Source: Pecten maximus (lineage: Eukaryota). Taken from it: 64,000 bases of DNA. The position numbers were made by a program, and so were the translations under genes. How positions within the stretch are numbered: position 1 is the stretch's first letter; each line of letters opens with the position of its first letter. The notes below the pieces were generated by a model that saw only the letters and a list, made by a program, of their open reading frames with translations, was not told the origin of the DNA and did no database searches. Shown piece by piece: positions 36,918-52,180 of the stretch. Location of the stretch: the NCBI RefSeq assembly GCF_902652985.1, contig NC_047015.1, forward strand, positions 41,416,001-41,480,000, in the 5' to 3' direction.

Positions 36918-37989
36918 GGGTTATATGGCCGAACAAATTACAGACATTATATCGAGACTGGCGTCACAGTAACACGCCAGGAAATACGTCAAGGACTTCA
37001 CAGCTTGTAATGTCATTATTACTACATTAGCAGTATTGTCATCAACGACTACATATACCCTCATATCGATTTCATTGAACCCTTTATTAATACAATAAAT
37101 TAATTTAGAAATAAATATAGAAATACCAGCAATGACGATGTTATTACTGAATGAATCTGTTTACCAACATAAAAAAGACACAGTGTACGGTCTATGTTGT
37201 GAAGGTCATTCCTGCGACAGTAGAACAACTACATCATTATGATCTAGGGCAATCAGAAAGCCATAGTTCATATCAGCAATGCGATATCATTAGAATCGCT
37301 AGTTTGCTTGGTTTTATCCGTTTTACAATCCTGATGTGAATTTGACCACAACATGAGTTTCTAGTTTCTCTTGCAATTTTGAGTAAATATAATTGATTGT
37401 TCAGGAATGTGAAGATGTGATTTACTTCCATAGCACATTTGTTTTATTTGAGTCTGCATGTTTCTTCTTCTTATGGTAACTCCCTTCCGTCAATAATGAC
37501 GATTTCATGTATATATATTTCATCAATACATATTTATCTTAATGTTGATGTTCAGTGCAACATATGAAAACGATACTGTTATATTATAAATGTCTCTTTA
37601 ATACTGGCTTCTGTCTTTGATATCTACACTCGCTAATGTTGATATTACCGATTTGTTGGTCTTTTAACACCCACACAACTCACTGTTTTAGAGAAAGCAC
37701 AGATTTTCGTCCTATTGAATTTGGCTTTGTATTGATGTTGTGAAGATCGCCAGACAACAAAGAAACGACAGCATCAATTATTCATAAAAAAACACACTAG
37801 CTTGTAGACTTAAGCCGGAGTCACGTGATGGCAAAACACGAACGGTTTTAGTTCTCCAGTATAACAGGATGTCACAAAATGGCAAATGTTACAAAGACTG
37901 GGCATTAATATTTGATAAAAACAATTATTCAGAACAAACAAATATTACTTAACCTTCGACTGATGTTTTGCATAAATTTTTCATTAAAA

Positions 37990-38750
37990 ACTTCACACCT
38001 ACTGATGTCACGGATGACTACATACCTACTGATGTCACGGATGACTACACACCTACTGATGTCACGGATGACTACACACCAACTGAAGTCACGGATGACT
38101 ACACACCAACTGAAGTCACGGATGACTACACACCTACTGATGTCACGGATGACTACACACCAACTGAAGTCACGGATGACTACACACCTACTGATGTCAC
38201 GGATGACTACACACCTACTGATGTCACGAATGACTACACACCAACTGAAGTCACGGATGACTACACACAAACTGGTGTCACGAATGACTACACACCAACT
38301 GATGTCACGAATGACTACACACCAACTGATGTCACGGATGACTACATACCTACTGATGTCACGGATGACTACATACCTACTGATGTCACGGATGACTACA
38401 CACCAACTGATGTCACGGATGACTACATACCTACTGATGTCACAGATGACTACATACCTACTGATGTCACGGATGACTACATACCTACTGATGTCACGGA
38501 TGACTACACACCTACTGATGTCACGGATGACTACATACCTACTGATGTCACGGATGACTACATACCTACTGATGTCACGGATGACTACACACCTACTGAT
38601 GTCAGGAATTACTACACACCAACTGATGCACGAATGAGTACACACCTACTGATGTCACGAATGACTTCACACCAAATGATGTCACGAATGACTTCACACC
38701 AACTGATGTCACGAATGACTACACACCTACTGATGTCACGGTTGACCACC
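37990..38750. repeat. 27-bp minisatellite (intronic to gene A)
   Basis: Unit ACACCTACTGATGTCACGGATGACTAC, about 28 copies. Confidence 0.95.
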
Positions 38751-38908: not shown

Positions 38909-39349
38909 CTTTATCTAATTATATTTGTAAAAGTCCACACAACTTCTACATGCTGATCATATAGCTACGATCATTAATGATGTTGAAGTATAAATAAAAA
39001 TGAAGTATGTTTTTGTCGTTATAAAGTTGTCAAACGATCCACTTCAGTAGAATGTCTTCTGAAGAGAACATTCATCAATTGCAAACAAAAACACAAGTTC
39101 CTCCGTGGGGAAAGTGACGATTGCTGGTTCTGATGATGTATTGGTCGACCGTTAGTCGACACGGCTAGCTCTAGTATGGCTAACGAGAGCACATCGTATC
39201 CATTCTCACGAACACCTTTGTGTGACTGAAATAGTCATAGCAACGAGTAATTCTATACAACAAAGCGTGTAATCCTTCTATTATCATGGAAAAGTAAATC
39301 CTACATTGGAGTTAATTATTACCCTGTATACAAAGGAGATTCTTAGCCA

Positions 39350-41044
39350 CAAATGCTGTACGCTTATAACCCTGTAACAAAGGAGAATCGTAGTTACCAT
39401 ACACAATACTGTACGCTTATTACCGTGTTACAAATGAGAATCGTAGTTACCATACACAATACTGTACGCTTATTACCGTGTTACAAAGGAGAAATGTAGT
39501 TACCATACACAATACTGTACGCTTATAACCCTGTAATAGAGGAGAATCGTAGTTACCATACACAATACTGTACGCTTATTACCCTGTAACAAAGGAGAAT
39601 CGTAGTTACCATACACAATACTGTACGCTTATAACCCTGTAATAGAGGAGAATCGTAGTTACCATACACAATACTGTACGCTTATTACTGTGTAGCAAAG
39701 GAGAATCGTAGTTACCATACACAATACTGTACGCTTATAACCCTGTAACAAAGGAGAATCGTAGTTACCATACACAATACTGTACGCTTATTACCGTGTT
39801 ACAAAGGAGAATCGTAGTTACCATACACAATACTGTACGCTTATTACCGTGTTACAAAGGAGAATCGTAGTTACCATACACAATACTGTACGTTTATAAC
39901 CCTGTATCAAAGGAGAATCGTAGTTACCATACACAATACTGTACGCTTATAACCCTGTAACAAAGGAGAATCGTAGTAACCAAACACAATACTGTACGCT
40001 TATAACCATGTAACAAAGGAGAATCGTAGTTACCATACACAATACTGTACGCTTATTACCCTGTAACAAAGGAGAATCGTAGTTACCATACACATAACTG
40101 TACGCTTATTACCGTGTTATAAAGGAGAATCGTAGTTACCATACACAATACTGTACGCTTATAACCCTGTAACAAAGGAGAATCGTAGTTACCATACACA
40201 ATACTGCACGCTTATTACCGTGTTATAAAGGAGAATCGTAGTTACCATACACAATACTTTACGCTTATTACCGTGTTACAAAGGAGAATCGTAATTACCA
40301 TACACAATACTGTACGCTTATAACCCTGTAAAAAAGGAGAATCGTAGTTACCATACACAATACTGTACGCTTATTACCGTGTTACAAAGGAGAATCGTAG
40401 TTACCATACACAATACTGTACGCCTATAACCCTGTAACAAAGGAGAATCGTAGTTACCATACACAATACTGTACGCTTATTACCGTGTTACAAAGGAGAA
40501 TCGTAGTTACCATACACAATACTGTACGCCTATAACCCTGTAACAAAGGAGAATCGTAGTTACCATACACAATACTGTACGCTTATTACCCTGTAACAAA
40601 GGAGAATCGTAGTTACCACACACAATACTGTACGCTTATTACCGTGTTATAAAGGAGAATCGTAGTTACCATACACAATACTGTACGCTTATTACCGTGT
40701 TATAAAGGAGAATCGTAGTTACCATACACAATACTGTACGCTTATTACCGTTTTATAAAGGAGAATCGTAGTTACCATACACAATACTGTACGCTTATTA
40801 CCGTGTTATAAAGGAGAATCGTAGTTACCATACACAATACTGTACGCTTATTACCGTGTAACAAAGGAGAATCGTAGTTACCATACACAATACTGTACGC
40901 TTATAACCCTGTAACAAAGGAGAATCGTAGTTACCATACACAATACTGTACGCTTATTACCCTGTAACAAAGGAGAATCGTAGTTACCATACACAATACT
41001 GTACGCTTATAACCCTGTAACAAAGGAGAATCGTAGTTACCATA
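39350..41044. repeat. 53-bp minisatellite, left arm (split by the Gypsy insertion)
   Basis: Unit CATACACAATACTGTACGCTTATTACCGTGTTACAAAGGAGAATCGTAGTTAC. Confidence 0.97.
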
Positions 41045-43973
41045 TGTGGTGAACCACTGTTTTGTGTTATGTTACCTGTCGTTCCGGACTGTCCGTCTTC
41101 TACTTTGTTTATTAGTCTCGACGTCAGGTAGACGTTTGTAAGTAATATACACCTAGGAGGTTTAGAAGCGTTCTAAAGATCCTGATTTTATAATAGGTGG
41201 CGCTAGTTTCCCTTTCGCGAGAGTATAAAAGGCGGCGGTCGAAACTAGACAGCGTTCACTTCTTCGTCTGACACGAACGAGATAAGGCCGGACATTAAGG
41301 TAATAGTAAAGATATAGACGTGCCTGAACAAGGCTTCCCTATATCAAAGTACTGTATTGTGTATTTAATAACTTACGGTAGAGTACGGAGGCAGATGTGC
41401 CTGAGTAAGGCTTCCCTTCTCCGTGGGGACTCTAGTTAGTCTATGTGATCGGTACATCACATACGTTGTAAGTGTATTAATATCAATAGTCTTGGGTCTG
41501 CTCGTGGTTTATAAGAAAGTGTCTGAAAGCCCCGAGTGTTGTACTGTACGTACATGCCTAACGTTAAATATATGCTAGGGAGTGCTCAGTAAGAAGTGAG
41601 TACTCAGTGAGTGCTCGGTAGAAGTGAGTGCTCGGTAGCAGTGAGTACTCAGTGAAGTGAGCGCTCGGTAAAAGTGAGCACTCAGTCAAAGTGAGTGCTC
41701 ACTCGGTCAATGAGTGTTGAAACTCTCTTACCCTCATAGTAATTATAGTTGTATAATGTGATATTGCCCTGAATAAACCCCAGATAGGGAAGGTTCATTT
41801 AGGGAGCACTCATTATTAGCTCACCTGGTCCGAAGGACCAAGGTGAGCTTATGCCATACCGTTGCGTCCGTCGTCCGTCGTCCGTCCGTCCGTCGTCCGT
41901 CGTCCGTCCGTCCGTCAACAATTGACTTCTTCTTCATAACCACACATCAGAATTTGACCAAATTTGGTCAGAAGCATCCCTATGGGTAGGGGACTCAGAA
42001 TTGTACAAATGATGGGGCTGACCCCCTGGGGGCCTCTGGGGCGGGGCCAAAAGTGGTCATTTTTGCGCTATTGATATAAACGACTTCTTCTCTGAAACCA
42101 AGCAAAGGCTATCACTCATATTTGCCTGGTAGCATCACTATGGGGTGGGGATTCAAAATTGTACAAATGATGGGACTGACCCCCCGGGGGCCTGAGGGGC
42201 GGGGCCAAATGTGGTCAATCTGGCTATATTGATATAAATGACTTCTTCTCTGAAACCAAGCAATGGCTATCGCTCATATTTGCATGGTAGCATCATTATG
42301 GGGTGGGGATTCAAAATTGTACAAATGAGGGGGCTGACCCCCCAGGGGCCTGAGGGGCGGGGCCAAATGTGGTCAATCTGGCTATATTGATATAAACGAC
42401 TTCTTCTCTGAAACCAAGCAATGGCTATCGCTCATATTTGCCTGGTAGCATCATTATGGGGTGGGGATTCAAAATTGTACAAATGATGGGGCTGACCCCC
42501 CAGGGACCTGAGGGGTGGGGCCGAATGTGATCAATTTGGCTATATTGATATAAACGACTTCTTCTCTGAAACCGAGCAATGCCTGTCACTCATATTTGCC
42601 TGGTAGCATCACTATGGGGTTGGGATTTAAAATTGTACAAATGATGGGACTGACCCCCCCAGGGGCCTGAGGGGCGAGGCCAAATGTGGTCAATTTGGCT
42701 ATATTCATATAATTGACTTCTTCTCTGGAACCAAACAATGGATATCTGTCATATTTTACTGGTAGCATCACCTTGGGGTAGGAATTTGAAATTGTACAAA
42801 TGACGGGGCTGACCCCCTGGGGTCTGAGGGGCGGGGCCAAAAGGGGTCAGTTTTACAGAATTGATATAAACGACTTCTGCTCTGAAACTAAGCAATGGAT
42901 ATCACTCATATTTACCTGGTAGCATCCCTATGGAGTGGGGATTCAAAATTGTACAAATGGTGGGACTGACCCCCAAGGGGTCTGAGGGGCGGGGCCAAAT
43001 GTGGTCAATCTGGCTATATTGATATAAACGACTTCTTCTCTGAAACAAAGCGATGGATATCGCTCATATTTGCCTGGTAGCATCACTATGGGTTGGGGAT
43101 TCAAAATTGTACAAATGATGGGGCTGACCCCCCAGGGACCTGAGGGGCGGGGCCAAATGTGGTCAATTGGGCTATATTGATATTAGCGACTTCTTCTCTG
43201 AAACCAAGCAATGGATATTGCTCTTATTTGCCTGGTAGCATCACTATTGGGTGGGTATTCAAAATTGTACAAATGGTGAGGCTGACCCCCCGGGGGCCTG
43301 AGGGGCGGGGCCAAGAGAGGTCAATTTGGCTGAATTGATATGAACAACTTCTCTGAAACCAATTAAGCAAGGGATATCGCTCATATTTGCCTGGTAGCAT
43401 CCTTTTGGGTAGCGATTCAAAATTTTATAAAGGAAGGAACTGACCCCCACTCCCCCCGGGGTGCAGAAGGTGGGGTCAAAAGGGGTCAATTGGTTTAACA
43501 ACTTCTTTTCTGAAACTAAGCAATGGATATCACTCACATTTGTGTGGTAGCATCCCTATGGGGTTGTTCCAAAAGTTGATTTTATTTCATGGATTAATGC
43601 ATTTTTTGACATCAAATCCTCACGTAGCCATATAAAATGCCTATGATATATTGACATACATGTAGCAATACCAGTGACAAATATACTTAATCATCATTCT
43701 TGTTTCATATCTCATAAAGTCCAGGTGAGCGATACAGGCCCTCTTGGGCCTCTTGTTTCATGTAGAATATCATTCTGTTCAGAGGAACTGAGCAATCATT
43801 GTGTTATATTTCAACTGTATAGCTAGTTGGCACTTGATGTATATTACATAAACACAGCCAGGTCAGCTGTATATTTCTGTATATTTTTGCACTGAGGACT
43901 CGAGTAAAACTAATTATATGTTAGACAATATGGATCATCAGTAGTGACTGATACGAACCCTGTAAACGTCACA
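41045..43973 (+). repeat. 5' LTR (interrupted by a 1.94-kb Helentron-type insertion)
   Basis: TGTGGTGAACC...AAACGTCACA; TATAAAA at 41224, AATAAA at 41772; matches the 3' LTR apart from about 5 substitutions, 5-bp and 58-bp deletions and the insertion. Confidence 0.95.
41816..43756 (+). mobile_element. Non-autonomous Helentron (HINE) with an internal ~158-bp satellite array
   Basis: Absent from the 3' LTR; inserted in a T run without TSD; 5' TTAGCTCACCTG subTIR with stem-loop, (GTCC/GTC)n microsatellite, about 10 tandem 158-bp units, 3' CAGGTGAGCGA subTIR and AGGCCC-TCTT-GGGCCT hairpin then CTTGTT. Confidence 0.92.
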
Positions 43974-43978
43974 TAATT

Positions 43979-43993
43979 TGGTGGCAGCGGTGG
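43979..43993 (+). promoter_or_regulatory. Primer binding site complementary to tRNA-Leu(AAG/UAG) 3' end
   Basis: TGGTGGCAGCGGTGG 5 nt after the LTR; complement of ...CCACCGCTGCCACCA (metazoan tRNA-Leu, from memory). Confidence 0.85.
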
Positions 43994-44081
43994 TGATCTT
44001 GTTGTCTATATTTCTGGTGTGCTCGAATACTCAGGTTTAAATAAAATTTGATATCAGAATTAAACTGTTATTTTTGTATTG

Positions 44082-45914
44082 ATGAAAATGGCCGATGGAA
44101 CTCCTCGCATTGATTTGATGGACTCTGAAAAGCGGTTTGGTGAGCGAAGTGACCAAAGTTATCATTCAACACCAAAACAACCCATGTCAAAAGGGAGCAG
44201 TCATTATAGAGACTCTGGATTTATGTCTATGCATGCAGCTGATAAAACTCGTGCAGAAAAGAGGGACTTGTCTGTGCTCTATAGCAGTATGATGGACAAT
44301 CACGAAGATCTTTCATCTCCAGATGAGATAGATAAGGAGATCGAACAAATGCAGGAGCAGTTACGCCGGCTTGATATTGAAAATCAGAGCCTGCGAGAGA
44401 CTTCGAGTAGACATGGACTGAAGGATTCATCGACATATAAAGGGAATCATGGTGTCCGAAGTAAAACAGAGAGCAGTGCTAAAGTAAGGTTCTCTGAGAG
44501 CACATATTCGCCTCATTTTAATGAAGGGAATAAGGAGGACAATATTACCTGTCGTGACAGCAATCTGAGGAGATCAGCTCGATTAAAGGAGAAGGAACAT
44601 ACATCAAGCCATGACTCTGCTCGGGTGAAGAGAATGAATCCAAGGACAATGTTGGATATGGATGATAGTGATTACGAGGATCAATCTCCAGTAAGAAAAC
44701 ACAAAACAAAATTTGTGTCTGTTAAAGCTTCTACTTATGATGGCACAACACCCTGGAGGGATTACCTGTCTCATTTTGAGGCATGCGCTCGAATCAATAG
44801 ATGGACAGAGCAGGAGATGGGTCTGTACCTAGCTGTGAGTTTGAGGGGACAAGCTCAAGGTATACTTGGGGATTTGCCTGCCCGGAAACAGGAGCATTAT
44901 TTCTCACTGATAACGGCTCTTGAACAACGGTTTGCCCCACCCAATCAAACAGAGCTTTATCGAGTACAATTGCTGGAGAGGAGGCAGCGAGCCAATGAGA
45001 CCCTTCCAGAACTTGGTCAAGCTATTCGAAGATTAGTCAACTTGACTTATCCCACTGTTGAAGTTGGGGTGAGAGAAACATTGGCCAAACAACAGTTTCT
45101 AGAATCCCTAGCTGACTCAGATATGCGAATTCGTATAAAACAAGCCAGACCTGATAATCTGACGGATGCAATTCATCTTGCAGTGGAGCTGGAAGCTTAC
45201 AAGAAAGCAGAAAAACATGGAAGTGAAGGTCGCTCATATCTCAGAGCAGCAAGTACTGAGAGTACTGAATCGACACATTCAGCAGAATCTGAGAAATCTG
45301 CGATGGAATCTATGTTGAGTAGTATCCAGCAAAAGTTGGAGAAGATGCAAACTGATATTAGTCAGCTCCAAGCTGTAAGGAAAAAGCAGAACCGACCTGT
45401 TCAGCAAAGACAGGATGCAAAGAATAGCACTGATCGACGTTGTTATAAGTGTCAAGAAATAGGACATTTACGCCGAGACTGTCCTCAGCTTAAGAAAGAG
45501 TTAAAGAAAGCATCAACAGGAGTAGCTAATCCGGTAAGGACAAGGAAGAGGAAGCGAAGTTGTAAACCATCCGCTGGGATTGGAATTTCCTCGGCTGCTC
45601 AAGAGGCAGGGCTATACATCAATGCTGAGGTACAGCATACCAAAGTGAAACTTTTGGTTGATACTGGAGCCACAGTGACCATTCTGTCACAGGAGGCATA
45701 TGAGAAAATTCCAGAGGAGAGAAGACCCAAATTGAAAGAGGTTAAAAAGAATATCATGGCTGCTAATGGCAGTGAGTTGAAAGTCCTTGGTCAGGGAGGA
45801 TTTATGATCAAGCCAGATGGTTGCCGGGACGTGTACTTTGAGGCTGTGGTAGCCAAAATAAGCACAGAAGGAATTCTTGGTCTTGGTCTTGAAATCAAGA
45901 AATGGCATAATTGA
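44082..45914 (+). CDS. gag: Gag (capsid plus CCHC knuckle) fused in frame to aspartic protease; truncated by a frameshift near 45888
   Basis: YDGTTPWRDYLSHFE capsid-like motif, CYKCQEIGHLRRDC zinc knuckle, LVDTGAT protease active site, GILGL motif at the frameshift. Confidence 0.92.
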   Translation: MKMADGTPRIDLMDSEKRFGERSDQSYHSTPKQPMSKGSSHYRDSGFMSMHAADKTRAEKRDLSVLYSSMMDNHEDLSSPDEIDKEIEQMQEQLRRLDIENQSLRETSSRHGLKDSSTYKGNHGVRSKTESSAKVRFSESTYSPHFNEGNKEDNITCRDSNLRRSARLKEKEHTSSHDSARVKRMNPRTMLDMDDSDYEDQSPVRKHKTKFVSVKASTYDGTTPWRDYLSHFEACARINRWTEQEMGLYLAVSLRGQAQGILGDLPARKQEHYFSLITALEQRFAPPNQTELYRVQLLERRQRANETLPELGQAIRRLVNLTYPTVEVGVRETLAKQQFLESLADSDMRIRIKQARPDNLTDAIHLAVELEAYKKAEKHGSEGRSYLRAASTESTESTHSAESEKSAMESMLSSIQQKLEKMQTDISQLQAVRKKQNRPVQQRQDAKNSTDRRCYKCQEIGHLRRDCPQLKKELKKASTGVANPVRTRKRKRSCKPSAGIGISSAAQEAGLYINAEVQHTKVKLLVDTGATVTILSQEAYEKIPEERRPKLKEVKKNIMAANGSELKVLGQGGFMIKPDGCRDVYFEAVVAKISTEGILGLGLEIKKWHN

Positions 45915-47454
45915 TTTAAAACGAGGATCTTTAGTGTTGGACGACGTGCCAGTGGACACTAAGTACGAGGGTACACTTGGATGCTTTCGAGTTGTTGCCT
46001 CCGAAAAGATAACCATTCCTGGTAAGAGTGAGATGGTTATTGCTGGGGAATTACGTTCTCCATCAGGTGAACATATAAATAGCGAGTCACATCTTATTGA
46101 AGGAGCTGACTCCTTCCTGAAAAATGACAAGGCTCTCGTTGCCCGATCATTGGTTTGTTATGAGACTACAGTTCCTGTGAGACTCATGAATCTTCAGGAA
46201 GATCCGCAAACGGTCTACCCAGGTACAAATATTGCTCGTGCTAGTCCTGTAACAAGTGTCATTGAGACAACATCCTCGTCTAGTTGTGCACCCTCTGGAG
46301 AGCTCAGAGAGGATTTACATCAACTACTACTGAGGTCAAAAGAACACCTGACTCCGGAACAGAGCAATAAAGTCAAATCTTTGTTATTGGCATACAAGAA
46401 TCTGTTCGCAGCCACTGACAGTGATCTTGGACGAACAACAGTGGTGAAACACAAAATAGAAACTGGTGATGCCCGACCCATCAAACAACCACTTGAGGCA
46501 CAAGTGAACCACACAAGAGTGCCAGCACATTTGAGCCCTGAGGTGGATAGACAAGTCAATGATATGCTGGACCGTGGAGTAATTCAGAAGTCTACCAGCC
46601 CCTGGTCATCGGGTATTGTTTTAGTACAAAAGAAAGACGGTAGTCTCCGATTCTGTGTTGACTATAGGCGTCTCAATGCTGTGAGCATTCATGATGCCTA
46701 TCCATTGCCACGCATTGATGAGGCATTGGACCACTTGTCGGGGTGTACTTGGTTTTCTACACTCGACCTGAATGCAGGGTACTGGCAAGTTGAACTAGAG
46801 AGGGAGGACCGTCCTAAAACTGCCTTTTCAACTAGGACTGGATTATTTGAATTCCAGGTGATGCCTTTTGGGTTGACTTCTGCTCCAGCCACATTTGAGC
46901 GGCTTATGGAGACGGTGTTAGCCGGACTTCAGTGGCAAATTTGTCTCATTTATTTAGATGATGTGATCGTGGTTGGAAAGGATTTTGAGGACATGTTACA
47001 AAATCTGCAAACTGTGTTTGAAAGACTCCTTACTGCAGGATTGAAACTTAAAACCAAGAAATGCCAACTGTTTGGAAAAGAGGTGATCTATCTCGGACAT
47101 GTGATATCAGAGGAAGGAATAGCTACTGATAATGAAAAAGTGAAAGTTGTTGAACAGTGGCCTGTGCCGAAGAACATTAAAGAGGTGAGATCATTTCTTG
47201 GATTCTGTGGATATTACAGGAGGTTTGTAAGAAACTTTTCACATATTGCTAGCTGTCTACACCGACTGACTGAGAAAGACAGAACTTTTGAGTGGACCAA
47301 TGCCTGCCAGGAGGCATTCACCACACTAAAGCATCAGCTAATCAATGCCCCTATACTGGCCCATCCAGATTTCACACAACCGTTTATTCTGGACACTGAT
47401 GCAAGTGACAAAGCTATTGGTGCAGTTCTTTCTCAAAACATTGATGGGAACTAG
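45877..47454 (+). CDS. pol: Pol, reverse transcriptase and start of RNase H (ends at premature TAG)
   Basis: RFCVDYRRLN, LDLNAGYWQ, MPFGL, YLDD, FILDTDASD motifs. Confidence 0.93.
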   Translation: MVLVLKSRNGIIDLKRGSLVLDDVPVDTKYEGTLGCFRVVASEKITIPGKSEMVIAGELRSPSGEHINSESHLIEGADSFLKNDKALVARSLVCYETTVPVRLMNLQEDPQTVYPGTNIARASPVTSVIETTSSSSCAPSGELREDLHQLLLRSKEHLTPEQSNKVKSLLLAYKNLFAATDSDLGRTTVVKHKIETGDARPIKQPLEAQVNHTRVPAHLSPEVDRQVNDMLDRGVIQKSTSPWSSGIVLVQKKDGSLRFCVDYRRLNAVSIHDAYPLPRIDEALDHLSGCTWFSTLDLNAGYWQVELEREDRPKTAFSTRTGLFEFQVMPFGLTSAPATFERLMETVLAGLQWQICLIYLDDVIVVGKDFEDMLQNLQTVFERLLTAGLKLKTKKCQLFGKEVIYLGHVISEEGIATDNEKVKVVEQWPVPKNIKEVRSFLGFCGYYRRFVRNFSHIASCLHRLTEKDRTFEWTNACQEAFTTLKHQLINAPILAHPDFTQPFILDTDASDKAIGAVLSQNIDGN

Positions 47455-49389
47455 AGACCTATCGCATATGCAGGCCGGATGCTGACGAAATCTGAAAGGA
47501 GTTACTGTGTAACAAGAAAAGAGTTGTTAGCGGTTGTGCACTTTGTGAAACATTTCAAACACTACCTGTATGGTAGGAGGTTTACGGTGAGAACGGATCA
47601 CAGTTCTCTACGCTGGCTACTTAACTTTAAGGCGCCAGAAGGTCAAATGGCCAGATGGCTACAGGTTTTGAGTTCCTATAACATGGACATCAAACACAGA
47701 CCAGGAAGTCAGCATCGCAATGCGGATGCCTTAAGTCGGATACCATGCCGACAATGTGGGTTCGATCCCATGTGGGAGAAACGTACCGAGACGGAGACTG
47801 AAAATACTGCCATGGCATGCAGCCCCAAAACGAAGGAGGACTCGGAAGACCAAAAGTCAAAATTTGAGTCGTCAATACTTCAACAAAAGCAGGAAGATGA
47901 TGCTGATATTGCAGTAGTGTTTAAATGGGTGAGGGAAGGAGAGAAACCTCCATACAAGGAAATTGGTGACCGGAGCATAATCCTGAAAACATTATGGGCC
48001 CAATTTGAATCCCTGGTGATACATGGTGACATGTTGTATCGGAAAAACCCCAATTCAACAACAAGTCTACAAGCAATTGTTCCTGCAGCAGAAAAACGAA
48101 CAGTGTTGACCCACAGTCATGACAATCGGAGTTCTGGACACTTGGGTATAAAGAAGACTTTGGCCAAAATTCGACAAAGTTTCTATTGGCCAGGAATTCA
48201 AAACGATGTGAAACAATATGTGATCGGATGTCCTCAGTGTAGCAAACGAAAGAGTTCAAGTAAAACCAAGCGAGCCCCTATGCAGATGGTTGAGTCCGGT
48301 TTTCCAATGGAGAGGATAGCCATAGATATTATCTGTGAACTCCCAAGTACACAGCAGGGTAACCGACACATATTGGTAGTTGCGGACTACTATACCAAGT
48401 GGTTGGAGAGTTTTGCCATGCCAAACATGGAAGCACAGACTGTGGCCAAGATTCTCGTAGAGGAGGGGATAGCTAGGTTTGGTGTACCTTACAGCCTCCA
48501 TTCCGATCAGGGATCCCAATTTGAAAGTTCTCTCTTTCGGGAGATGTGCTTATTACTACAAATCAACAAAACACATACCACTCCCTATCATCCCAAATCA
48601 GATGGAATGGTAGAACGGTTCAACAAGACGCTTGTGACCATGCTGAGTGCCTTTGTAAATAACCATCAGACTGATTGGGACGAACACTTGCCATATGTAA
48701 TGATGGCGTACTGCTCAACAGAACACGAGACCACTGGAAATTCGCCTAATGCTATGATGCTAGGAAGGGAAACGAGTACTCCCCTAGACATTCAGTATGA
48801 AATGCCAAGGAATATCAAGACCATTCCTCAAAACCAATGGGCTTGGCAGTTAAAAAGTAAGATGGAAAATGCACAAGAACTGGTTAGGAAACACTCAAAA
48901 GGTGCGATGCTCCGACAAAAGCGTTATCATGACCAGAAGTTGTCTTGGACTAAGTTTGAGCCAGGTGATTCTGTCTATGTCTTCTTCCCAAATATTCCGG
49001 CTGGGACCACCCACAAGTTAGCAAGCCGATGGCGGGGACCTTTTAAGATACTCACTAGATTGACAGAGGTGACCTATAGGGTTCCGTGTGGTTATAGGGG
49101 AAAGACTCAAGTGATCCATGCTGACCGCATGAGACCGAGACACCCTCAAGTATTGCGTGGTGAAAGTAGAGCGGAAGCATTCGGACGAAAAGATGTGCAA
49201 GTTCAGGTGGATGAAACGTGTTTTGAGCAAAGTCAGAATGAGAGTGTAGAGAAAACTGAGAAAAACTTGGTGCTTGAGGAATTCGGTGAGAAATTCAGTA
49301 GTGAGAATGAGTGTGAACCTAATGGAGCAAACCCAAGGCGTACGCGACGTAATCCTCAATGGCATTCTGATTATACTTCATTCTACTAG
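47455..49389 (+). CDS. pol: Pol continuation, RNase H and integrase (same frame after the TAG)
   Basis: RPIAYAGR, ELLAVV, TDH, NADALSR; HHCC (H..GHLG..CPQC); DDE (IAID, HSDQG, MVERFN); GPF motif. Confidence 0.93.
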   Translation, partial: RPIAYAGRMLTKSERSYCVTRKELLAVVHFVKHFKHYLYGRRFTVRTDHSSLRWLLNFKAPEGQMARWLQVLSSYNMDIKHRPGSQHRNADALSRIPCRQCGFDPMWEKRTETETENTAMACSPKTKEDSEDQKSKFESSILQQKQEDDADIAVVFKWVREGEKPPYKEIGDRSIILKTLWAQFESLVIHGDMLYRKNPNSTTSLQAIVPAAEKRTVLTHSHDNRSSGHLGIKKTLAKIRQSFYWPGIQNDVKQYVIGCPQCSKRKSSSKTKRAPMQMVESGFPMERIAIDIICELPSTQQGNRHILVVADYYTKWLESFAMPNMEAQTVAKILVEEGIARFGVPYSLHSDQGSQFESSLFREMCLLLQINKTHTTPYHPKSDGMVERFNKTLVTMLSAFVNNHQTDWDEHLPYVMMAYCSTEHETTGNSPNAMMLGRETSTPLDIQYEMPRNIKTIPQNQWAWQLKSKMENAQELVRKHSKGAMLRQKRYHDQKLSWTKFEPGDSVYVFFPNIPAGTTHKLASRWRGPFKILTRLTEVTYRVPCGYRGKTQVIHADRMRPRHPQVLRGESRAEAFGRKDVQVQVDETCFEQSQNESVEKTEKNLVLEEFGEKFSSENECEPNGANPRRTRRNPQWHSDYTSFY

Positions 49390-49445
49390 AATGGTCACTA
49401 CTGTTTAGTGAACTACCTCTCTTTGTCATTGCAGACATCCCCAGA

Positions 49446-50153
49446 ATGGTTAAGACTAAGACAACTCCCGTCAAACAGTGCCCTATGTGTTCCTTCCGTG
49501 CCAACAACATGGATGACATGAGGAAGCATATCCTGGAGTGTGGCCTAGAGACAATGGAAAGGAAGACTCTCACGTGCCCTGATTGCAGCTACAAAACTTT
49601 CCGTGCTGCTAATATGAATCGGCACCGTAAACGTCATACTGACAACGACAGGAGTGCTCCCAAGGCTGTGGAACAGAGTTTGGAGGAAAACCGGCCTTCA
49701 ACGTCATCCCAAGCTCCCGCTGTACAAACTGATGTAGAGAGCTGGAAGGCGCAGGATCCTGGTGACCTCCTGGGGGAGATATCGGAATCTTCTGAGGGTA
49801 ATGGCTTGTCTTCTGAAGATGAGGGAGACAGTCTTCTGGTCGGGCGTACTATCAGAAGACCAACGCGACCAGAACCAGTTCGAGCCCCAAAGAGGAAGTC
49901 AGAAACTGCAACTTTAGTCAAGCCCCATCCGAAGGATCCTATCAACATGGTTCCAATGCCAGTGGTAAGCACTGCCCCAAGTGCAAAGAAAACATGCAAC
50001 TACGTTAATGTTGCCACTCAGACAGAGCAAGAGCCGCCTGCTAGCCGAAGGACTGTAACGAAGACTACCCGGTATTCAGAGGGAGGACGGGACATCCAGA
50101 TAGTCGAGTTTTTCGAGTTCTTTGAGCAGGAGAACCTCAATCGCTTTTCCTAA
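49446..50153 (+). CDS. Gypsy ORF3: 235-aa protein with tandem C2HC and C2H2 zinc fingers, basic patch and TQT motif
   Basis: CPMC-x12-H-x3-C and CPDC-x12-H-x3-H; agaATGG Kozak; acceptor ctctctttgtcattgcAG at 49434; AATAAA at 50177; intact ORF between pol and the 3' LTR. Confidence 0.85.
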   Translation: MVKTKTTPVKQCPMCSFRANNMDDMRKHILECGLETMERKTLTCPDCSYKTFRAANMNRHRKRHTDNDRSAPKAVEQSLEENRPSTSSQAPAVQTDVESWKAQDPGDLLGEISESSEGNGLSSEDEGDSLLVGRTIRRPTRPEPVRAPKRKSETATLVKPHPKDPINMVPMPVVSTAPSAKKTCNYVNVATQTEQEPPASRRTVTKTTRYSEGGRDIQIVEFFEFFEQENLNRFS

Positions 50154-50245
50154 ATCGATTTTCATGTAACTTCCTGAATAAACCTTTGAGTGTTAGTTAT
50201 TGTTTTAGCTTTACTTATGTTAGGACGTGAGGACACGTGTTGCTC

Positions 50246-50259
50246 GGAGGCGTGGGTAG
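50246..50259 (+). promoter_or_regulatory. Polypurine-tract position (imperfect PPT)
   Basis: GGAGGCGTGGGTAG directly before the 3' LTR. Confidence 0.7.
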
Positions 50260-51311
50260 TGTGGTGAACCACTGTTGTGTGTTATGTTACCTGTCGTTCC
50301 GGACTGTCCGTCTTCTACTTTGTTTATTAGTCTCGACGTCAGGTAGACGTTTGTAAGTAATATACACCTAGGAGGTTTAGAAGCGTTCTAAAGATCCTGA
50401 TTTTATAATAGGTGGCGCTAGTTTCCCTTTCGCGAGAGTATAAAAGGCGGCGGTCGAAACTAGACAGCGTTCACTTCTTCGTCTGACACGAACGAGATAA
50501 GGCCGGACATTAAGGTAATAGTAAAGATATAGACGTGCCTGAACAAGGCTTCCCTATATCAAAGTACTGTATTGTGTATTTAATAACTTACGGTAGAGTA
50601 CGGAGGCAGATGTGCCTGAGTAAGGCTTACCTTCTCCGTGGGGACTCTAGTTAGTCTATGTGATCGGTACATCACATACGTTGTAAGTGTATTAATATCA
50701 ATAGTCTTGGGTCTGCTCGTGGTTTATAAGAAAGTGTCTGAAAGCCCCGAGTGTTGTACTGTACGTACATGCCTAACGTTAAATATATGCTAGGGAGTGC
50801 TCAGTAAGAAGTGAGTACTCAGTGAGTGCTCGGTAGAAGTGAGTGCTCGGTAGCAGTGAGTACTCAGTGAAGTGAGCGCTCGGTAAAAGTGAGCACTCAG
50901 TCAAAGTGAGTGCTCATTCGGTCAATGAGTGTTGAAACTCTCTTACCCTCATAGTAATTATAGTTGTATAATGTGATATTGCCCTGAATAAACCCCAGAT
51001 AGGGAAGGTTCATTTTGGTCAGGGAGCACTCATTATTTCATGTAGAATATCATTCTGTTCTGTTAATATAAATAACTCTCTGTTTAGGTATATTTGTATT
51101 TATACTGTAGGATTACTCAGAGGAACTGAGCAATCATTGTGTTATATTTCAATTGTATAGCTAGTTGGCACTTGATGTATATTACATAAACACAGCCAGG
51201 TCAACTGTATATTTCTGTATATTTTTGCACTGAGGACTCGAGTAAAACTAATTATATGTTAGACAATATGGATCATCAGTAGTGACTGATACGAACCCTG
51301 TAAACGTCACA
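50260..51311 (+). repeat. 3' LTR, 1052 bp, uninterrupted
   Basis: TGTGGTGAACC...AAACGTCACA; AATAAA at 50987. Confidence 0.96.
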
Positions 51312-52180
51312 CATACACAATACTGTACGCTTATTACCGTGTTATAAAGGAGAATCGTAGTTACCATACACAATACTGTACGCTTATTACCGTGTTATAA
51401 AGGAGAATCGTAGTTACCATACACAATACTGTACGCTTATTACCGTGTTACAAAGGAGAATCGTAGTCACAATACACAATACTGTACGCTTATTACCGTG
51501 TTACAAAGGAGAATCGTAGTTACCATACACAATACTGTACGCTTATAACCCTGTAACAAAGGAGAATCGTAGTTACCATACACAATACTGTACGCTTATT
51601 ACCCTGTAACAAAGGAGAATCGTAGTTACCATACACAATACTGTACGCTTATTACTGTGTAACAAAGGAGAATCGTAGTTACCATACACAATACTGTACG
51701 CTTATTACCCTGTAACAAAGGAGAATCGTAGTTACCATACACAATACTGTACGCTTATTACCGTGTTACAAAGGAGAATCGTAGTTACCATACACAATAT
51801 TGTACGCTTATAACCCTGTAACAAAGGAGAATCGTAGTTACCATACACAATACTGTACGCTTATTACCGTGTAACAAAGGAGAATCGTAGTTACCAAACA
51901 CAATACTGTACGCTTATCACCGTGTTACAAAGGAGAATCGTAGTTACCATACACAATACTGTACGCTTATAACCTTGTAAAAAAGGAGAATCGTAGTTAC
52001 CATACACAATAGTGTACGCTTATAACCCTGTAACAAAGGAGAATCGTAGTTACCATACACAATACTGTACGCTTATAACCCTGTAACAAAGGAGAATCGT
52101 AGTTACCATACACAATACTGTACGCTTATTACCGTGTAACAAAGGAGAATCGTACTTATCATACACAATGCTGGACGCTA
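51312..52180. repeat. 53-bp minisatellite, right arm
   Basis: Same unit resumes in register after the duplicated CATA. Confidence 0.97.

Follow-up and report, generated by a model that had tools for sequence, protein, structure and literature searches.

On the evidence of its sequence, ORF3, a zinc-finger gene lying between pol and the 3′ LTR of a retrotransposon of the scallop Pecten maximus, is a third gene that a bivalve Gypsy clade has conserved under selection. It belongs to a family of real and apparently undescribed accessory genes within this broad clade. The window, i.e., the whole stretch of DNA that was analysed, comprises 64,000 nt. The element spans positions 41045 to 51311 and has the following features, with coordinates counted from the first letter of the window:

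41041..41044, + strand: left target-site duplication CATA, with its copy at 51312-51315
41045..43973, + strand: 5′ LTR with TG...CA ends, split by a foreign repeat
41224..41232, + strand: putative TATA box of the LTR promoter; a comparably placed TATA occurs in 8 family representatives
41297..41305, + strand: candidate splice donor AAG/GTAATA, cut between 41299 and 41300, which would end an ATG-free non-coding first exon of ~40 nt
43979..43993, + strand: primer-binding site, pairing with the 3′ end of host tRNA-Leu(TAG)
44082..49389, + strand: gag-protease-RT-RNase H-integrase, broken in the window copy
49411..49434, + strand: pyrimidine tract and splice acceptor TTGCAG
49446..50153, + strand: ORF3, 235 aa, intact, no transmembrane segment
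49446..49475, + strand: conserved N-terminal motif T-K-x-T-x-R/K-K of ORF3, which partly lines up with residues 3-9 of histone H3
49479..49637, + strand: C2HC finger (C12-C32, acidic helix) and C2H2 finger (C44-H64; helix R-1, N3, R6)
49743..49763, + strand: conserved W-x3-D-P-G motif (W100-G106), present as the strict pattern in 39 of 51 relatives
49854..49898, + strand: basic patch with conserved R137, T140 and P142 (R-x-x-T-x-P), a candidate nuclear localisation signal
50007..50027, + strand: LC8/DYNLL-type TQT motif (N188-E194); the C-terminal stretch behind it likely forms a beta-hairpin
50177..50182, + strand: AATAAA between ORF3 and the 3′ LTR, of putative poly(A) use
50246..50259, + strand: polypurine tract
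50260..51311, + strand: 3′ LTR, with AATAAA at 50987

The LTR pair with TG...CA ends, the target duplication of 4 bp, the primer-binding site and the polypurine tract are those of a Ty3/Gypsy element, and the Pfam domains follow the Gypsy order of gag and then protease, RT, RNase H and integrase (Retrotrans_gag, weak; zf-CCHC; aspartyl protease; RVT_1; RT_RNaseH; Integrase_H2C2; rve). A tRNA-Leu was called at two of the three fetched host loci matching the primer-binding site, and an initiator-like TCACTT lies near 41257, 3′ of the LTR TATA box. With 5 mismatches in 977 aligned columns between its two LTRs, the window copy is young, yet it is non-autonomous: pol is damaged by a frameshift near 45880, in the protease region, and by an in-frame stop at 47452-47454. 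Several sister copies have gag-pol as a single open frame of 1769 aa. The repeat that splits the 5′ LTR (41816-43755) is an unrelated interspersed sequence of ~1.9 kb with internal subrepeats of ~180 bp and entered after integration. The element is surrounded by a satellite array with a unit of 53 bp (39250-41044, and onward from 51312), and the locus L044 likewise lies within a tandem array, there with a 42-bp unit. Upstream, a 224-aa open frame at 37963-38637 is built of a 30-bp tandem repeat and is probably no gene.

The two-finger frame of 235 aa, its acceptor and Kozak-type start, the AATAAA behind it and the donor in the LTR had all been reported in an initial annotation of this DNA, and each was recovered in its place. 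For comparison, a profile search of 1.84 billion protein representatives was used; among its best 150 matches, 51 span the whole profile and were kept as relatives, and the remaining 99, multi-finger or partial, were dropped. The early view that ORF3 is not an env gene held: the best 19-residue Kyte-Doolittle mean in ORF3 is 0.42, none of the 51 relatives exceeds 1.6, and the hallmarks of env (signal peptide, transmembrane anchor) were not found in ORF3, nor any env family match in Pfam. The fingers read C12-x2-C15-x12-H28-x3-C32 and C44-x2-C47-x12-H60-x3-H64. The second belongs to the C2H2 class, scoring above the Pfam cut-off for zf-H2C2_5 (E 3.4e-7), and the first is a C2HC variant. The helix of finger 2 has R at +6 in 39/39 relatives and K/R at -1 in 37/39, contact residues which, by the recognition code, we take to be of the DNA-contact type; the helix of finger 1 is acidic across relatives. 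A PDB sequence search gave matches over the finger region (CTCF and others), while matches to T-cell-receptor chains (E 0.03-0.05) were weak and judged to be chance. In the ESM Atlas, ORF3 matched unnamed clusters at 0.93-0.95 plus generic finger clusters.

Searching the scallop genome for ORF3 gave 60 matches from 101 candidates. The initial annotation had raised the question of linkage to Gypsy pol, and this linkage is consistent: integrase lies immediately 5′ of ORF3 in 10/10 full-length sister copies, one of them with a stop codon in ORF3, and post-pol homologues occur in 10 related LTR families of the same genome (F1-F4, F6-F11). It had also proposed a dN/dS comparison among copies, with values near 1 counting against a functional gene. 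Among 14 ORF3 copies, the variants common to at least two copies are 14 synonymous and 5 nonsynonymous, corresponding to a dN/dS of 0.10-0.15 (ts/tv 1-8, p <= 1e-4); singleton variants give 0.31-0.44, and 12/12 pairs from six other families give 0.22-0.62. These ratios indicate that ORF3 is under purifying selection in seven families. The ORF3 tree is broadly congruent with an RT tree of elements of the scallop genome alone (no GyDB or Repbase reference elements), and F1-F4 stand apart from the other families in both.

A gene at the same place reaches much further. Twenty further integrase matches were fetched and comprised 14 distinct distant families, two F11/F12-like elements, two duplicates and two ORF3-less copies of F7 and F10. 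In 13/14 of the distant Gypsy families (L114-L131), whose integrase is mostly 36-42% identical to that of the window, a two-finger ORF occupies the post-pol place. These ORFs differ in their C-termini, which include BTB/POZ (L125), an unnamed domain common to L118/L127/L128, another domain with a TQT-like end (L117/L123/L124) and a likely coiled coil (L131); the ESM Atlas held no match for the C-terminal domain of one distant family. Outside Pecten, eight of the 20 clusters looked up were named (Argopecten, Mizuhopecten, two of Pinctada, Ostrea, Saccostrea, Magallana and one symbiont bin), and relatives in the named genomes mostly occur as several near-identical copies each. Linkage to pol beyond the Pecten genome comes from one Argopecten model (P0014), which starts with an integrase-like tail, because no Pol-ORF3 fusions were matched: 8000 scored candidates from other species yielded two unrelated multi-finger proteins, which is weak evidence. 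A scan of metagenomes gave one locus of the ORF3 family.

One member of the family differs in its setting. The gene P0015 (L037:7597-8274; G000:C10:29841196-29841870) is single-copy, the next best match being 45-46%, and its surroundings of 30 kb contain no gag/pol match and no flanking direct repeat that would mark LTR remnants. It has an acceptor 4 nt 5′ of its ATG and is preceded, at a distance of about 630 nt, by a CAG/GTATGT donor. P0015 clusters with Mizuhopecten and Ylistrum proteins (100/99) and adjoins F7 (99/97) in a tree whose root lies on a long branch. Because it nests beside F7 and not outside all element copies, transfer from element to host is the likelier direction, and P0015 is likely a domesticated retrotransposon gene, to which proteins of two other scallop genera are likely orthologous. 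This gene could also be read the other way round, as the source from which a host exon was captured, ORF3 then being that exon or a neutral passenger and its splice signals leftovers of the capture. Such an origin had been named in the initial annotation, in the form of a recent one-off event, as the outcome that would undo its reading, and what speaks for it is precisely the existence of an LTR-less, single-copy relative with likely orthologues. Purifying selection in seven families, the congruence of the ORF3 and RT trees, the two-finger ORF at the same place in nearly all distant families and a host gene nested beside one element family argue against it, so that capture appears extremely unlikely and, by these sequence comparisons, already largely refuted.

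The signals around ORF3 point to a separate transcript. The acceptor AG at 49433-49434 lies 11 nt upstream of the ORF3 ATG, which has A at -3 and G at +4, and by a simple pyrimidine-tract rule it is joint best among six sites scoring at least 11/14 between 41400 and 49500. YAG with a pyrimidine tract occurs 1-11 nt 5′ of the ORF3 ATG in 10/10 close families; the shuffle p is 0.03-0.14 per family, with a product of ~1e-10.6 if the families are counted as independent. Even among the distant ORFs, 11/13 have an acceptor within 12 nt of an ATG preceding finger 1, several ATGs having been tried per ORF. The donor lies about 75 nt past the TATA box at 41224, and AAG/GTA is found in 17/17 LTR matches (GTATTA in 12, GTAATA in 4, GTAGTA in 1). 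A donor of the form [AC]AG/GT[AG] 72-91 nt past the TATA is found in 6/8 families (shuffle ~0.04 each), with this interval set after inspection of the data and relatives not independent of one another. In F2, the best donor is at +131, and no consistent donor position emerges from F12 and representatives of 11 distant families, 12 elements in all. Thus, of the spliced-mRNA set-up put forward in the initial annotation, the conserved positions of acceptor and donor stand, and splicing itself is a prediction from them. We consider it highly probable that ORF3 is expressed from a spliced RNA, in which the non-coding LTR exon of ~40 nt would be joined to 49435 to give a monocistronic ORF3 message. 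By appearance, the 30 best loci include no spliced retrocopies; the gag-protease/ORF3 joins at seven loci were considered as splice products and rejected, the join being a microhomology of ~13 nt and not GT/AG.

The claim of a dedicated poly(A) signal at 50177 is not supported. This AATAAA reads ATTAAA in six sister copies, and a hexamer between the ORF3 stop and the LTR is found in 4/8 families vs ~2 expected from shuffles, i.e., its conservation is not beyond chance. The default poly(A) signal is the LTR hexamer at 50987.

Towards its C terminus, ORF3 resembles ligands of the dynein light chain LC8. A [TIV]Q[TCV] motif is present within the last 80 aa of 46/51 relatives, vs 19% in shuffles. 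In 48 relatives, the flanks of the QT motif show D at -4 in 23, T at +1 in 44 and D/E at +2 in 33, so that the anchors of LC8 partners (TQT, polar -4, D/E/P at +2) are all represented; position -3 is mostly V/A/I, and K/R, frequent there in LC8 partners, is not usual. The TQT-flank preferences described for LC8 agree with the ORF3 motif (PMC6607443; PMC3078936). A modelled complex of the host LC8 dimer and ORF3 residues 170-235 scored 0.84, the best of three controls reaching 0.01, with a partner pLDDT of 55-56, contact agreement of at least 85% and an interface at residues 184-196. The mark applied to such models was reached by 51/78 solved and 2/108 mismatched pairs in a microbial calibration and by 39/65 and 2/126 in a eukaryotic one, both of which cover neither peptides nor disordered chains; since LC8-TQT complexes have already been solved, the pass may reflect memory or likeness. 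On the motif and the model together, LC8 probably binds ORF3. In the host genome, LC8/dynein light chain genes that lack introns and are nearly identical to one another lie clustered on G000:C8 (L051-L056), and there are 12 matches genome-wide.

The N terminus suggests a second contact. Aligned with host H3, 48 relatives carry T3 in 32, K4 in 39, T6 in 38, R8 in 23 and K9 in 27, the H3 residue being the commonest one at each of these positions; A1 (10), R2 (1), Q5 (0) and A7 (0) are seldom or never matched. At least 4/9 identities to the H3 N terminus are found in 29/48 relatives vs 0/85 control finger proteins, for a comparison picked after inspection of the data and relatives not independent of one another. 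Many H3-tail readers require A1 and R2. The likeness is a lead, for which a Thr-Pro kinase site or an import signal may account in part. We tentatively consider, with the balance leaning against it, that the free N terminus engages readers or enzymes of H3K4/K9; this would explain why ORF3 retains its own ATG even when fused to Pol.

From these elements we propose that the ORF3 protein is likely nuclear and dimerised by host LC8, that finger 2 may bind DNA, with two weak fingers gaining avidity from LC8 dimerisation, and that the protein would act in trans on chromatin, keeping the promoter of its own element (the presumed target) active. The BTB or TQT-like motifs beside the same finger pair in distant families fit such a design of fingers plus a dimeriser. 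The whole model of a spliced, LC8-dimerised protein acting in trans on its own promoter chromatin seems to us evenly poised between right and wrong. Its extension, a widespread animal Gypsy clade with a spliced, LC8-dimerised finger protein as an H3-tail-mimic counter-silencing factor, annotated as “REST-like” in bivalves and domesticated once in scallop, appears rather unlikely in full. Against action on the promoter stand the multiplying ORF3-less lineages described below and the lack of enrichment of sites: the GAG triplet, the target of finger 2 predicted by the recognition code, is not enriched in U3 in any of eight families (0/8). The latter would suit a host-directed decoy, in which ORF3 sequesters LC8, or enzymes of chromatin, and loosens host silencing at large rather than acting at its own LTR; in Drosophila, the piRNA co-transcriptional silencing complex is reported to need LC8 to dimerise (PMC7861614). 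Action in trans would also permit free-riding by ORF3-less copies. Nevertheless, with 12 LC8 matches in the host genome, a single motif would hardly titrate LC8, the conserved finger of DNA type points to targeted action, and the Panoramix complex belongs to a fly system, all of which makes the decoy very unlikely.

The initial annotation had asked whether ORF3 is absent or disrupted in sister copies. In the family of the window, it follows pol in 10/10 full-length copies, whereas sublineages of F7, F10 and F4 lack it. ORF3 is missing at 9/30 of the best integrase loci (F7, 5/6; F10, 3/4; F4, 1/10), and the ORF3-less loci include L097-L099, L104, L107 and L121 of F7, L087, L100, L103 and L130 of F10, and L095 of F4. 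Several of these copies have open gag-pol frames, and most of those in F7 and F10 have an altered LTR donor. These sequences indicate that ORF3 is dispensable in cis and that ORF3-less lineages multiply. In F10, the donor is absent from 3/4 ORF3-less copies, one of which retains it, and present in both ORF3-bearing copies; in F7, the donor-like site (+77 to +79 in ORF3-bearing LTRs, read by eye) is weaker in 6/6 ORF3-less copies than in ORF3-bearing 3′ LTRs. Loss or weakening of the donor together with ORF3 amounts to two events, with one exception. L046 carries one LTR of each donor type, suggesting recombination.

Multiplication of ORF3-less copies is compatible with supply in trans, and also with a Rev- or CERV-like RNA regulator, a spliced product acting on the genomic RNA that still carries the intron, which it would bind or license so that this RNA is exported from the nucleus or stabilised. 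Without a donor there would be no intron and an export factor would be unneeded, and such a factor predicts that donor and ORF3 disappear together, as in two sublineages that still multiply. CERV of the Ty3/Gypsy element Cer1 of C. elegans offers the precedent, being an extra Gypsy protein with a cysteine cluster or loop, made from a spliced mRNA, nuclear, predicted to oligomerise and needed for export of genomic RNA (PMC10309623). CERV differs in having 517 aa, exons shared with gag and three folded domains (PMC10309623), whereas ORF3 would be a one-exon frame behind a non-coding leader, with C2HC and C2H2 fingers and predicted dimerisation by LC8. No CERV or Rev match was obtained in Pfam, PDB or protein searches, the DNA-type contact residues of finger 2 are invariant, and the H3-like N terminus would have no role, so that we regard an RNA regulator as unlikely.

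In other families ORF3 is joined to the preceding gene. The gag-pol frame runs into ORF3 without a stop in F2 (L031, L042; 1968 aa) and F3 (L032-L034, L039; 1937 and 1365 aa). In addition, a non-autonomous deletion lineage of seven loci (L011-L014, L016, L018/L019, L024/L030) has gag-protease in frame with ORF3 from about codon 33-36, retains finger 2 and TQT, and has open frames of up to 935 aa. Such fusions are what one would expect of an integration or transport helper that works with integrase, or as its tail, and ties the integration complex to LC8/dynein or to chromatin, comparable to the chromodomains of chromoviruses. The fused F2 and F3 copies, however, keep the acceptor, the own ATG and the N-terminal motif of ORF3, stops or frame changes separate pol from ORF3 in the other close families, and ORF3-less lineages do integrate. 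We judge this helper role decidedly unlikely.

Among known systems, the env gene of errantiviruses such as Drosophila gypsy likewise lies between pol and the 3′ LTR, and is expressed from a spliced subgenomic RNA; ORF3 is unlike it in having neither signal peptide, transmembrane segment nor env family match. The sORF1 and sORF2 of the MDG1 group are also accessory ORFs of env-less Gypsy elements, sORF1 being nuclear and some lepidopteran sORF2 genes lying 3′ of pol; sORF2, however, is a membrane fusogen of 63-107 aa, and the accessible text leaves zinc fingers and an LC8 motif unmentioned (PMC11952523). Lineage-specific 3′ genes of Gypsy elements are further described as extra ORFs in Tat elements of plants and in chromoviruses of fungi, whose hosts and proteins differ from those of ORF3 (PMC2774666; PMC8220671; PMC9289625). 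The host protein ASCIZ/ATMIN resembles ORF3 in combining zinc fingers with a disordered tail bound by LC8 at TQT motifs (PMC5963919), but it is a transcription factor of the host and offers LC8 many sites, whereas ORF3 is element-borne with two fingers and usually 1-2 sites; the two share no evident homology beyond the generic finger. The novelty that the initial annotation had attached to a complex-retrovirus-like organisation was overstated, as comparable organisation is described for Ty3/Gypsy (PMC10309623; PMC11952523). A search of open-access full text gave no description of the gene family itself, while Repbase/Dfam and subscription journals, outside that search, may already mark the ORF. 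In the main text of a survey of mollusc LTR elements “ORF” and “zinc” have 0 occurrences (PMC6238403), and the accessible part of a 2026 review mentions no such factor (PMC13269885).

Among the accessory proteins of animal Gypsy elements, few regulatory ones have so far been characterised (CERV, sORF1/2), and ORF3 is carried clade-wide. Its motifs name host partners to test, namely LC8 and the H3K4/K9 machinery, and the ORF3-bearing and ORF3-less sublineages of one genome form a natural comparison for counter-silencing or Rev-like factors. The family would also call for a correction of annotation. RefSeq presents its proteins as host genes, labelled uncharacterised, REST-like or HIVEP3-like, and the Pecten maximus annotation includes proteins of the same 90%-identity cluster as ORF3; the REST-like and HIVEP3-like “host genes” would be element proteins, and one copy is apparently now a true host zinc-finger gene. 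A further relative, P0038, is filed under a bacterial symbiont MAG on a contig of 1.9 kb and is probably host DNA in the bin.
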